64,000 nucleotides of DNA from positions 3,668 through 67,667 of the forward strand of contig UQPB01000011.1 of NCBI GenBank assembly GCA_900542835.1, in the 5' to 3' direction. Within the stretch, counting starts at the first letter, position 1. Every line of letters starts with the position of its first letter. A program made the translations under genes and the position numbers. Below are positions 2,371 to 60,388 of the stretch, piece by piece. This DNA is from an uncultured Pelosinus sp. (GTDB lineage Bacteria; Bacillota; Negativicutes; Sporomusales; Acetonemataceae). The notes beneath the pieces were generated by a model that saw only the letters and a program-made list of their open reading frames with translations, had not been told where the DNA came from and made no database searches.

Positions 2371-2505
2371 TAGCCAGCGCCGCCGGCTGGCCGCTGATTA
2401 AATGGACCAGTCAGGATGTTGTGTGCATAATCAGCGGTTACCGGGGAAGAGCGTAAAGCGGCAGAGGGTTACGGCGAGTTGAGGGCAGGCAAGCCGTAAC
2501 CCTTT

Positions 2506-30080: not shown

Positions 30081-30199
30081 GATAGTCCCTCCTGTGTTCG
30101 TTGGCGTCAGGCCGGATGCAGCCGCATGAGGCCCTGTCCTAAAGGTTCTCGCCTGAAGCGAAAAATCCTGCCGCCGGTAAACGGCGTTAGCGGCTGGGA

Positions 30200-30339
30200 T
30201 AAGCACTGATTAATGTCCGCCGCGCAGTTTGAGCGCGTCAGCCAGTCCTTGCAAGAGTGCTGCTATTGCTGCGGTCTTGCTTACTTGCCAGGAAAAAAAT
30301 CCCGCGTCAATTTGTCCGTTTCATTCAATCAGCGCTTAC
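30200..30339 (-). repeat. MITE-like structured element, family L, copy 3 (in the 5' leader of the EVE-domain gene, sense orientation)
   Basis: Reverse complement aligns with copies at 40450 and 59298: shared TIR-like ends TAAGyGCTGATTrAATGAA ... TTAATCAGTGCTTA, internal TTTTTT(T)C, CTGGCAAG(G/T)AAG, GCAG(G/C)AATAGCA, CTCTTGCAAGGACTGGCTGACGC blocks. Confidence 0.75.
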
Positions 30340-39477: not shown

Positions 39478-40449
39478 ATGGATATAGATCGCGAGTTAGC
39501 CATGGAGTTTGTCCGGGTAACCGAGGCAGCCGCTATTGCCTGCGGCCGCTGGATGGGAAAAGGCGATAAAATTGCTGCTGATCAGGCTGCCGTTGACGCG
39601 ATGCGGAGCATGTTCGATACTGTCAATATCAGTGGTACTGTCGTTATCGGCGAGGGGGAAATGGACGAGGCCCCTATGCTGTATATCGGTGAGCAGGTCG
39701 GAGCCGGCGGCCTCGAGGTTGATATCGCTGTTGACCCGCTTGAGGGTACTAATCTGGTGGCCAAAGGGCTGCCGGGTGCTATCGCGGTGCTGGCGATTGC
39801 CCCCAAGGGCGGCTTGCTGCACGCTCCCGACATGTATATGGATAAAATTGCCGTTGGACCGAAAGCGGCCGGAAAAGTTCATATCGACGCTCCGGTTAAA
39901 GACAATCTGAAAGCGGTGGCATCCGCGCTCGACCGCCGGGTTGAGGATCTGACCGTCGTTATTCTCGACCGTCCGCGGCACGCGGGAATCATTCAGGAAG
40001 TCCGCGACGCCGGCGCCCGCATTAAACTGATCTCAGATGGTGATGTGTCGCCGGCGATCAATGTCGGCATTGAGGGAACCGGCATTCATATGATGCTGGG
40101 CGTGGGTGGCGCCCCGGAAGGCGTTATTGCCGCCGCTGCGCTGAAGTGCCTGGGCGGCGATATGCAGGGTAAGTTATGGCCGGAAAACGACGCCGATACG
40201 GCACGGGCCCAAAAGATGGGGATTCATGATATTAATAAGGTTCTGACGATTAATGATTTGGTCAGCGGCCAGGACGTCATCTTTGCGGCCACTGCCATCA
40301 CCCAGGGGGATTTGTTGAACCCGCTGCGCTATTTTGGCGGCGGCGTCCGCAGTCACTCGATTGTCATGCGCCACAGTTCAGGAACCGTGCGATTTATCGA
40401 CGCTATTCATACCTATGACCGCACGCCGCTGTTTATTAAGCGGGCCTAG
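39478..40449 (+). CDS. glpX: Fructose-1,6-bisphosphatase class II
   Basis: 323 aa; GlpX family motifs (VIGEGEMDEAPMLYIGE, DPLEGT). Confidence 0.9.
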   Translation: MDIDRELAMEFVRVTEAAAIACGRWMGKGDKIAADQAAVDAMRSMFDTVNISGTVVIGEGEMDEAPMLYIGEQVGAGGLEVDIAVDPLEGTNLVAKGLPGAIAVLAIAPKGGLLHAPDMYMDKIAVGPKAAGKVHIDAPVKDNLKAVASALDRRVEDLTVVILDRPRHAGIIQEVRDAGARIKLISDGDVSPAINVGIEGTGIHMMLGVGGAPEGVIAAAALKCLGGDMQGKLWPENDADTARAQKMGIHDINKVLTINDLVSGQDVIFAATAITQGDLLNPLRYFGGGVRSHSIVMRHSSGTVRFIDAIHTYDRTPLFIKRA

Positions 40450-40612
40450 GTAAGTGCTGATTAAATGAACCCGTCAGATTGACGAGAGATTTTTTCGACT
40501 GGCAAGGAAGAAGCCAGACCGCAGGAATAGCAACGCTCTTGCAAGGACTGGCTGACGCCGCCAGGCGGAAAAAGATCCGTCAAGCTGCGTTGCGTAAATT
40601 AATCAGTGCTTA
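40450..40612 (+). repeat. MITE-like structured element, family L, copy 1 (between glpX and the small membrane-protein/fin genes)
   Basis: See family L description; flanked by CTAGG on both sides; followed by a GC hairpin (40665-40706). Confidence 0.75.
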
Positions 40613-40773
40613 ACTAGGTATACAGATTTCTAGCACCACGAAAAGAATTCGATACGCAAGCATCCACAGCCCCGGAGTCTGCCACAGCAGCCGTCCGGGG
40701 CTGTGGCGCGTTTAAACGTATAGGTTACGGCTGAAACGGCAATAATCAGGTAAAAAGCCGGGAGGAAGACGGT

Positions 40774-58917: not shown

Positions 58918-59229
58918 ATGGATGTAACCGTAGAAGACGGCCGGGCAGTCATGCGCATAGCCGGCGAGTTTCAGGGAAAAAACGCCGCTGACGTGCGCGA
59001 CGCGCTGCTCGCATGCCTGCAGGATGGCCATCGTCATGTTGTGATCGATCTGAGTGGCGTCAGCCTGATCAATGCCACCGGAATCGGCGTTCTGGTCAGC
59101 GTCCAGCAGCGCTTGGAGGCGCTGGGAGGCAAGCTGAGCCTGTATGGTCTGGAGCAGCCGGTCGGCCAGGTGCTCGAGCGAACCCGGCTTCACCGCAGCT
59201 TCGATAGTGAACCGCCGGCCGAATCTTAA
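58918..59229 (+). CDS. STAS-domain protein (anti-sigma-factor antagonist, SpoIIAA/RsbV-like)
   Basis: 103 aa; DLSGVSLINATGIGVL matches the SpoIIAA phospho-loop region (Thr instead of Ser); ATG 3 nt after the MCP stop codon, RBS inside the MCP 3' end. Confidence 0.7.
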   Translation: MDVTVEDGRAVMRIAGEFQGKNAADVRDALLACLQDGHRHVVIDLSGVSLINATGIGVLVSVQQRLEALGGKLSLYGLEQPVGQVLERTRLHRSFDSEPPAES

Positions 59230-59249
59230 CAAAAAATTAACATGAAATT

Positions 59250-59282
59250 AATAGAATCGGAATTGTTGTCCATTATAATTCT
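59250..59282 (+). promoter_or_regulatory. Putative internal promoter (-10 TATAAT at ~59274, AT-rich UP-like tract) upstream of the leader element and pstC
   Basis: TATAAT read directly; -35 weak; lies in the 265-nt gap between the STAS gene and pstC. Confidence 0.35.
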
Positions 59283-59297
59283 TGTGAAGAGTCTTGG

Positions 59298-59452
59298 TAA
59301 GCGATGATTAAATGAACCGGTCAGGCAGGCGAAAATTTTTTCACCTGGCAAGGAAGCGAGAGCGCAGGAAGAGCAGCTCTTTCAAGGTCTTGCTGACGCA
59401 GCCAGACGGCAACAGCTCCGCCAGCTTGGGCTGCGTGACTTAATCAGTGCTG
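59298..59452 (+). repeat. MITE-like structured element, family L, copy 2 (leader of pstC-pstA-EAL/GGDEF inside the pst operon)
   Basis: See family L description; ends 42 nt before the pstC ATG; TATAAT 20 nt upstream. Confidence 0.75.
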
Positions 59453-59494
59453 ACCTTGCGCTTGTGTCAATGCGAATAAGGATGTGAACATTTA

Positions 59495-60388
59495 ATGCCG
59501 GCAATCGATCAGGGAAGCAGCCACAAACTGAAGCTGATGTATGACAACTATATCCGGATGCTGTTTGTGGCTTCCGCTGCGTTAATGGCAGTGATTATTT
59601 TTGCGATCATTTTGTTTATCGGCCAGCAGGGGCTGCTGACCTTTAAAGAAGTCACGCCGCTGGAGTTTTTCCTGTCAGCAAAATGGGACCCGACTGACGG
59701 CCGTTACGGCGCCTTAAGCTTTATTCTCGGCTCAATCTGTACGACCTTTCTCGCCGTGCTCATCGGTGCGCCGCTGGGACTGGCGGGAGCGGTTTTCCTG
59801 GCTAAGATCGCTCCCCAGAGCGTCAGACGGTTCATGCGCCCGGCAACGGATTTATATGTAGCCGTGCCGTCAGTTGTTTACGGCTATATCGGGCTTACCG
59901 TTCTTATTCCGTTTATCCGCGTGCATTTTGACGCCGGATCGGGATTTGGACTGCTGGCAGCATCGCTGATACTGGCGGTTATGATTCTGCCGACCGTTAT
60001 TACTATTTCCGAGGACGCCATTCGTTCTGTGCCGGCAAATCTGGAGGAAGCGTCGCTGGCTCTCGGCGCTACCCGCTGGCAGACTGTTCGCCGCGTCCTG
60101 CTGCCGGCGGCGGCTCCCGGCATTCTAACGGCGATTATCCTGGCTATGGCCAGGGCGATTGGCGAAACAATGGCGGTGCAGATGGTAATCGGCAACACGC
60201 CGCTGCTGCCCAAGTCGCTGCTGACACCGACCGCAACCCTTACCAGTGAAATTGTTGTTGAGATGGGCAATACGCCGTTTGGGTCGACCTGGGGCAACTC
60301 CCTGTTCTTAATGGCGCTGGTCCTGCTGGCTATTTCCTTATTGATGATTGTGTGCATCCGTCATATCGGCAAGAGGAGGTTTGCCTGA
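59495..60388 (+). CDS. pstC: Phosphate ABC transporter permease
   Basis: 6 TM, EAA-like loop EEASLALGATRWQTVRRVLLP; typical PstC. Confidence 0.9.
   Translation: MPAIDQGSSHKLKLMYDNYIRMLFVASAALMAVIIFAIILFIGQQGLLTFKEVTPLEFFLSAKWDPTDGRYGALSFILGSICTTFLAVLIGAPLGLAGAVFLAKIAPQSVRRFMRPATDLYVAVPSVVYGYIGLTVLIPFIRVHFDAGSGFGLLAASLILAVMILPTVITISEDAIRSVPANLEEASLALGATRWQTVRRVLLPAAAPGILTAIILAMARAIGETMAVQMVIGNTPLLPKSLLTPTATLTSEIVVEMGNTPFGSTWGNSLFLMALVLLAISLLMIVCIRHIGKRRFA

Follow-up and report, generated by a model that had tools for sequence, protein, structure and literature searches.

The window analyzed here, a 64,000-nucleotide stretch from an uncultured Pelosinus sp., contains three related elements of about 150 bp whose alignment has a mean column identity of 81-83%. 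The first, c1 (40450-40613, + strand), is 164 bp long and has the ends GTAAGTGCTGATTAAAT ... TTAATCAGTGCTTAA; c2 (59297-59454, + strand) is 158 bp; c3 (30199-30339, - strand) is 141 bp and has a 19-bp internal deletion. All three belong to subfamily A, defined below. An nhmmer profile of c1, c2, and c3, searched across the window, matches these sites only, with E-values from 1e-41 to 1e-52, plus one weak match at 2392-2422. The weak match marks a fourth copy, an internally deleted relic of about 50 bp at 2392-2441 (+ strand) that retains both end regions (CGCTGATTAAATGGACCAGTCAGG ... TGTGTGCATAATCAGCGGTTAC). In local alignment with the copy at L139, the relic scores 55, compared with a mean of 23.4 and a maximum of 40.7 for shuffled sequences. 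An earlier note on this DNA had placed the three longer copies to within 1-2 bases of the positions given here, and the terminal inverted repeats it described are real. The true ends of the window copies are GTAAG...CTTAM, one base outside the TAAG of that note, and its remark that all copies start with TA is an artefact of a boundary drawn one base too far in.

The glpX reading frame ends at 40449, and c1 begins directly after the glpX stop codon. As read from the sequence, the tetranucleotide CTAG occurs on both sides of c1 as a target-site duplication, at 40446-40449, where it includes the glpX stop TAG (40447-40449), and again at 40614-40617. The CTAGG reported earlier as flanking this copy is indeed present on both sides, but its meaningful part is the 4-bp CTAG, and the final G agrees by chance. 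By position, c1 is the 3' region of glpX at least as much as it is the leader of the next gene. A GC-rich hairpin at 40666-40704, 3' of c1, has no T-run and was not scored as an intrinsic terminator, so c1 is not claimed to precede one.

The second copy begins 17 nt after a TATAAT box (59274-59279) and ends 40 nt before the pstC-like ATG at 59495, the start of a gene for an ABC permease of PstC type. Its target-site duplication, again by sequence reading, is CTTG, at 59293-59296 and 59455-59458. Upstream of the TATAAT are TTAACA, TTAACA, and TTAATA at 11-bp spacing (59226-59253), and the arrangement looks like a phosphate-regulated promoter by analogy with the PhoP boxes of Bacillus. Because c2 lies between this promoter-like TATAAT and pstC, it is probably transcribed as part of the pst leader. 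The third copy sits in the divergent interval between an EVE-domain gene (start 30080, - strand) and spoIID (start 30465, + strand), and no target duplication is recognizable in its flanks. The sporulation genes spoIID, fin, and spoVT are present. Predicted RNA folds are stable for all three copies: -69.2 kcal/mol for c1 (z = -7.7), -59.0 kcal/mol for c2 (z = -2.65), and -50.5 kcal/mol for c3 (z = -3.8).

Metagenome contigs were scanned with a pattern made from the two ends, TGATTRAATGAA and TTAATCAGTGCT, separated by a gap of 95-125 bases, and 60 loci were recovered. Within these loci, nhmmer together with pairing of terminal repeats identifies 78 copies at 76 independent sites. All copies have terminal inverted repeats of 15-20 bp, G[G/T]AAGYRCTGATTAAAT, and 75 terminal-repeat pairs show a spacing of exactly 160 bp. 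Family members are 158-164 bp in length; with c3 included, the elements span 141-164 bp. The same loci also hold micro-derivatives of 27, 49, and 61 bp that consist of terminal repeats only, as well as 208-bp variants with a nested 48-bp insert.

Searches of other collections gave null results. A scan of species-representative genome contigs with a pattern of three internal blocks returned no match; the host species is absent from the representatives, and the pattern was subfamily-specific. By nhmmer, 80 PyrG-anchored loci from related genomes contain 0 copies. There was no match among viral contigs in a scan for the terminal repeats, nor among plasmids by blastn. Rfam yields no match for the whole window at gathering thresholds and only noise at relaxed E-value thresholds. 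The CTP synthase (PyrG) encoded in the window is identical to NCBI protein MDU4961215.1, from a metagenome-assembled Sporomusaceae bacterium. The nearest GTDB species representatives are Negativicutes, with only about 80% PyrG identity.

Alignment of the copies resolves four subfamilies. Subfamily A consists of the window copies plus one copy in POVV01008009; its ends are GTAAG, and its pairwise identity, 75-88%, comes from a sample of only 4 full copies. Subfamily B, from one JGI sample, also has GTAAG ends. Subfamily C, with GGAAG ends and a mean within-group identity of 94%, comes from two ENA samples, one covered about 50x and the other about 8x. Subfamily D, from the other JGI samples, likewise ends in GGAAG. 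Comparison of A with C gives 85.6% identity over the outer 20+20 bases and 43.8% over the interior, which indicates that the internal blocks reflect subfamily ancestry and not a family-wide core. The conserved internal blocks pointed out in the earlier note are therefore common to subfamily A, but do not extend to the family (in round figures, 86% at the termini and 44% in the interior). Six-frame translations reveal no reading frame conserved across the subfamilies. A small encoded protein, suggested by similar translations of c1 and c2 near the 3' end, was considered and dropped, as indels shift the frame and the other subfamilies have no such frame.

For comparison of flanks, the element ends were fixed at G[G/T]AAG...CTT[C/A]C. 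After orthologous sites are collapsed, a perfect 4-bp target-site duplication is found at 62 of the 76 independent sites. In a first set, the 4-bp flanks were identical in 51 of 62 cases; permuting the right flanks gave 6.2 matches on average and at most 16 over 10,000 permutations, and controls with a shifted register gave 0-2. The target consensus is Y-T-A-R (Y 100%, T 84%, A 73%, R 97%), and the commonest duplicated tetranucleotides are TTAA, CTAA, TTAG, and CTAG. This 4-bp duplication replaces the TA or CTAGG target that had been suggested from the window copies, of which only two of the three full ones show a duplication (CTAG at c1, CTTG at c2). At 17 sites the stop codon of a flanking gene lies inside the duplicated tetranucleotide, as follows from YTAR containing TAA or TAG; c1, at glpX, is one such case.

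Empty sites were sought by joining the left and right flanks of a copy, removing one tetranucleotide, and matching the product against other loci. Several orthologous empty sites were found, all for subfamily C, with 95-100% identity and a single tetranucleotide. One insertion is filled at L114:6744-6903 and empty at L126:4036-4195 (CTTA). Two more pairs are L145:5216-5375 versus L096:6266-6425 (TTAA) and L117:5760-5919 versus L112:4361-4520 (CTTA). Either of the two ENA samples lacks insertions that the other has. Filled and empty sites in otherwise near-identical loci mean that these elements moved recently, and subfamily C is recently mobile. With terminal repeats, 4-bp duplications, dispersed copies, and filled/empty pairs, the repeats form a family of miniature elements (MITEs), as first proposed for the window copies.

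A full insertion sequence, recognizable as a pair of terminal repeats 1-2 kb apart, does not occur in the MITE-bearing loci. At L132 and L134, where repeats stand unpaired, no transposase gene follows, and L119 and L104 contain no such gene either. Traces of a parent are present nonetheless. In one MITE-bearing genome, a 371-bp deletion derivative (L119:6289-6659) has the ends GGAAACACTGATAAA and an interior that translates to MKRFLKIDFSIERTPDATALLHFRHLLEKHDIS. This interior, an InsH-like fragment, has a weak match to Pfam model DUF772 (E = 0.0027) and is 62% identical over 50 residues to the N-terminal half of the transposase of the L153 element described below. One locus ends in an InsH-like C-terminal fragment. 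A protein database search with this fragment returned 73 relatives, all of 160 aa or less; DDE_Tnp_1 or DUF772 domains are present in many of them, and some bear the name 'IS52, transposase' or are attributed to Mitsuokella. The contigs that encode these relatives carry whole insertion sequences.

Two of these insertion sequences are informative. The first, at L153:961-2202 (1,242 bp), has the ends GGAATCACTGATAAAT and GGAATCGCCGATAAAT, and its terminal repeats are identical to those of the MITE at 12-14 of 16 positions. The second, at L161:1882-3101 (1,220 bp), has the ends GGAAACGCTGATTAAAT and, as reverse complement, GGAAACGCTGATTTATGAACCGGTCA, and is flanked on both sides by a perfect 4-bp duplication, CTAA. 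The left end of this second element, which comes from a different metagenome than the MITE copies, matches the subfamily C end (GGAAGCGCTGATTAAAT) in 16 of 17 bases, so that homologous terminal repeats, looked for on an autonomous element, do occur on an element of autonomous type, with its transposase frame broken. Near its right end, the subterminal sequence ATGAACCGGTCA recurs in c2 of the window (GATTAAATGAACCGGTCAGG). In L162 and L163, the insertion sequences have CTTG and TTAG, respectively, as right flanks.

The two ORF halves of the L161 element match Pfam models DUF772 and DDE_Tnp_1. NCBIfam model NF033581, 'IS5 family transposase', matches the ORF halves of both elements over model positions 16-149 and 155-285, with scores of 152.7 and 90.5 bits for L153 and of 82.1 and 110 bits for L161; the summed scores are above the cutoff of 140. 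None of the retrieved IS5-like copies has an intact transposase gene: in L153-L158 a TGA stands at the place of a conserved Trp codon, and the L161 frame is shifted. Every retrieved insertion-sequence copy is defective, and mobilization of the MITE in trans by an intact enzyme of IS5 type is therefore only inferred. The terminal repeat of Escherichia coli IS5, GGAAGGTGCGAATAAG (read from NC_000913), agrees with that of the MITE at 10 of 16 positions, including the first five, which is suggestive, though the stretch is too short to settle the matter alone. Elements of the IS5 group, as described in ISfinder, generate a 4-bp duplication at YTAR-type sites, and the CTAA on both sides of L161 is a direct instance. 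A terminal repeat of IS66 type (GTAAGCG) was also considered, and was dropped once other subfamilies showed GGAAG ends and the duplication proved to be 4 bp long, at YTAR.

The repeats are thus very probably MITEs, non-autonomous DNA transposons that derive from an insertion sequence of the IS5 group within the IS5 family. Terminal repeat, subterminal sequence, duplication length, and target all support the proposed IS5-group parentage. According to this model, the element is non-coding, and its terminal inverted repeats of about 17 bp would be recognized by an IS5-type DDE transposase with an N-terminal DUF772 region and a DDE_Tnp_1 catalytic domain. Acting in trans, the transposase would move the element to a Y-T-A-R site through a 4-bp staggered cut, and repair would duplicate the tetranucleotide. 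Many copies would by this route land on stop codons and regenerate them, as c1 does at glpX. Against this reading, the parent-like insertion sequences are all broken, and the best of them, L161, is from another metagenome. For subfamily A in particular, the evidence comprises 4 full copies and a duplication at two of the three full window copies, and the filled/empty pairs are from subfamily C.

No IS5 transposase is encoded within the 64-kb window. Together with the 75-88% identity among subfamily A copies, the deletion and missing duplication of c3, and the 50-bp relic, this suggests that the window copies are most likely old, diverged, immobile fossils. Their local effect is likely to be passive: on read-through, a stable predicted hairpin of about 150 nt would be added to the transcript. 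The transcripts likely to gain it are the pst operon leader (c2), the glpX 3' region (c1), and the EVE/spoIID intergenic region (c3). A predicted hairpin of -59 kcal/mol in the leader of a phosphate-transport operon could affect expression.

The fold itself is a property of the whole family. When 54 distinct copies are aligned, their consensus fold is a single long hairpin with 47 pairs. In this alignment 97.8% of cells at paired positions are paired, compared with 92.0% in shuffles, and two-sided changes occur in 27 of the 47 pairs, compared with 9.9 in shuffles and 4-14 in controls whose partners were displaced by 1-3 columns; the copies descend from few sources, and these cell counts overstate the number of independent events. 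The description of a structured element is borne out by these stable folds and compensatory changes, and the covariation proposed as a check is found. Fifty-six of 56 distinct copies fold better on the strand named in the earlier note, with a mean of -87.6 versus -66.6 kcal/mol as RNA. One copy folded as DNA gives -39.8 versus -30.7 kcal/mol, the same strand again being better. The G-U wobbles that the earlier note had seen on one strand only, in the closing stem, are part of this wider asymmetry. Among paired cells there are 348 G·U versus 15 A·C (28:7 in subfamily A, 12:2 in B, and 308:6 in C and D together), and 30 pair columns ever contain G·U while 9 ever contain A·C, counts to be read with the structure having been predicted on the favored strand. 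Only that strand has two-by-two loops of tandem G·A, built from CAGAT motifs in the two arms. The strand asymmetry of the fold is real. It may stem from selection, acting on RNA or on DNA in single-stranded form, or from the history of the few sources of the copies.

A plain selfish-DNA model alone does not explain why pairing is kept on only one strand. A variant of the MITE interpretation is therefore that the element, besides being mobilized as proposed, has a functional long hairpin of one strand, either as RNA or as single-stranded DNA. We regard this addition as possible but on balance unlikely. Same-strand folding in every copy, the paired-cell and two-sided-change counts, the G·U excess in the same direction in A, B, and C+D, the one-strand G·A loops, and retention of the fold while the interior diverged to 44% identity between A and C all speak for it. 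Variants shared among copies also preserve pairing more often than private variants do, 29:3 versus 12:11 (p = 0.002) with alignment-derived pairs. The same comparison weakens to 29:9 versus 14:14 (p = 0.04) when the consensus fold supplies the pairs, and the difference is gone once G·U positions are excluded; since the test hinges on how pairs are defined, it is only suggestive of selection on the fold. DNA palindromes can be 'corrected' by intrastrand template switching, which also yields compensatory change, and with few source copies the events are not independent. Orientation relative to genes is random, so half of the copies would be transcribed on the 'wrong' strand, and no internal promoter-like site was found in the element. 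More specifically, the one-strand hairpin may be under selection as a single-stranded form that serves the element's own life cycle, a proposal we consider doubtful. That form could be an RNA that modulates an IS5-type transposase, or a fold-back of single-stranded DNA that promotes excision or integration. Such a role, if true, would be unusual for an element driven by a DDE transposase.

Genes around the 76 sites were called simply by longest ORF, a crude method with noisy output. By these calls, the element lies between tandem genes in sense orientation at 15 sites and in antisense at 13, between divergent genes at 13, and between convergent genes at 16; it overlaps a called ORF at 13 sites and falls at a locus edge at 6. 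In 29 cases the element and its downstream gene point the same way, and in 33 they are opposed (p = 0.70); the genes that neighbor family copies are unrelated to each other. There is no orientation rule relative to genes. The statement that copies always occur in 5' leaders in sense orientation does not hold for the family, and in light of the random orientation it describes a three-copy coincidence with a chance probability of about 1/8.

These results bear directly on the alternative that each copy acts in cis as a structured RNA, riboswitch-like or of leader type, and regulates the gene that follows it. Co-orientation of all three window copies with a downstream gene, the location of c2 between a promoter-like TATAAT and pstC, and the stable RNA folds would all suit such an RNA. 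Random position and orientation across the family argue against a host regulatory role, as do the unrelated downstream genes and the 13 copies that overlap called ORFs. Target duplications and empty sites are likewise against it, and the family lacks a conserved unpaired core, with an interior identity of 44% between subfamilies, and has no Rfam match. We judge this explanation very improbable; the repeats are not a gene-regulatory RNA.

An equally remote reading is an IS630/Tc1-mariner-type MITE that duplicates a TA target; the earlier note had suggested a possible TA target and a check for an IS630/Tc1-type transposase. The center of the target consensus is indeed TA. The outer positions of the tetranucleotide vary among sites yet agree between the two flanks of a site, with 62 of 76 being perfect 4-mers, and the matching autonomous-type elements belong instead to the IS5 family by NF033581 and by their DUF772 and DDE_Tnp_1 domains. 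Least probable of all is a REP/BIME-type repeat mobilized by a RAYT (HUH) enzyme. The family has strand-specific hairpin folding in common with REPs, but its units are 160 bp and not 20-40 bp long, have terminal inverted repeats and 4-bp duplications, and occur singly, not in clusters.

As an IS5-derived MITE, the family has known counterparts. MITEs derived from the IS5 family include BrickBuilt and MITEPgRS/MITE464 of Porphyromonas gingivalis, and ATR, from ISNme1, of Neisseria meningitidis (PMC4596501). Like the present elements, BrickBuilt, MITEPgRS, and ATR are short, non-coding, and multicopy, and their parentage was assigned from terminal repeats that are identical or almost identical to those of insertion sequences of the IS5 family (PMC4596501). 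Their terminal repeat is GAGACC..., whereas that of the present family is GGAAGCGCTGATTAA..., and their hosts are Bacteroidota and Proteobacteria rather than Negativicutes. BrickBuilt contains a minisatellite, in contrast to the near full-length hairpin and clean 4-bp YTAR duplication seen here.

E. coli IS5 (insH) is similar in that its terminal repeat starts with GGAAG and has 10 of 16 positions in common with the MITE, and in that the parent-like insertion sequences encode InsH-like proteins with DUF772 and DDE_Tnp_1. It differs in size, 1,195 bp compared with about 160 bp for the window elements, which lack a transposase and are unrelated to it beyond the first 17 bp or so. Correia/NEMIS of Neisseria and ERIC of Enterobacteria are MITE-like intergenic repeats of 100-160 bp, as are the present elements, and their co-transcribed long hairpins can alter mRNA processing and stability. 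They differ from the present family in duplicating TA and in their terminal repeats and presumed parents. Correia/NEMIS and ERIC have documented effects on transcripts, which for the present family we infer.

Structured MITEs as such are known, among them bcr1, Correia, and ERIC (PMC3184786). In bcr1, an element of about 155 bp in the Bacillus cereus group, compensatory base changes keep a structure at the RNA level, and transcription has been demonstrated (PMC3184786). The present family resembles bcr1 in size, in short flanking direct repeats, in a distribution that in bcr1 is not conserved between strains, and in compensatory changes (PMC3184786). The differences are the 5-bp flanking repeats of bcr1, its two-stem cruciform-like fold, and the lack of an assigned IS5 parent. 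In the searchable literature we came across no account of a MITE from Negativicutes. The family is new and is of an already familiar kind, the IS5-derived MITE.

In Sporomusaceae and Selenomonadaceae-like genomes, annotation of the family keeps its hairpins from passing as riboswitches, small RNAs, or terminators. The family provides a clear case of an IS5-group MITE in which YTAR targeting leads to frequent landing on stop codons without damage to the gene, and its strand-specific fold can be used to ask whether MITE structure matters for mobility. The young subfamily, with its clean filled and empty sites, offers strain-level markers for gut or rumen-type metagenomes.

The repeat family also explains breaks in assembly at its sites. 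Three short-read contigs stop 54 nt into c1, as expected of an assembler that meets a repeat. The GlpX protein beside c1 is also encoded, with identical gene order, on metagenome contigs from ENA and Logan.

At 17 of the 76 independent insertion sites of the MITE family, the stop codon of the adjoining gene falls within the duplicated tetranucleotide, as at 40446-40449, next to the forward-strand copy at 40450-40613. Insertion of the MITE at these sites both hits the stop codon and restores it. Three independent short-read contigs (L004, L005 and L006) end 54 nt inside this same copy, the behavior expected for a multi-copy repeat.

The IS5-like insertion sequences proposed as parent-like elements are represented only by broken transposase genes among the copies retrieved. 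Those at loci L153-L158 (e.g. L153:1156-2046) share an identical TGG to TGA change in a conserved Trp codon, seen across different samples in a total of at least 11 contigs, and the gene at L161 (2157-2965) carries a frameshift. None of the 73 database relatives exceeds 160 amino acids in length.

The MITE itself occurs in longer and shorter forms. Two variants of 208 bp (L109:12590-12797 and L118:662-869) contain an insert of 48 bp, a palindrome in its own right (…GCTTAGCACTTTAGTGCTTAGC…), which may be a nested small repeat. The window holds a fourth, internally deleted relic of about 50 bp (2392-2441, forward strand), both end regions of which align to a full copy; it lies a short way past an ORF that ends at 2370. 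Micro-derivatives of 27 bp (L128:8404-8430), 49 bp (L095:9819-9867) and 61 bp (L119:14012-14072) retain little beyond the two terminal repeats, and their flanks are still YTAR-like.

Each full copy in the window has further features beside it. Between the copy at 40450-40613 and the next gene is a strong GC-rich hairpin, ACAGCCCCGG...CCGGGGCTGT (40666-40704, forward strand), which was not scored as an intrinsic terminator because it lacks a T-run. A terminator-like hairpin with a T-run (30185-30170, reverse strand) separates the copy at 30199-30339 from the point where the EVE-domain gene begins; no co-oriented gene is present upstream of this hairpin as a target for termination. Near the copy at 59297-59454, three TTAAYA hexamers with 11-bp spacing, followed by TATAAT (59226-59279, forward strand), precede the pstC-like operon and resemble a Pho-box promoter. 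The gene upstream encodes a chemotaxis receptor, so no pstS adjoins pstC in the window.

Copies of subfamilies C and D, found outside the window (e.g. L142:1008-1167), have four AGAT(G/T) motifs, two per hairpin arm, in direct orientation. In the predicted fold of one strand, but not of the other, these motifs form 2x2 loops of tandem G·A; in double-stranded DNA they may in addition serve as protein-binding sites.
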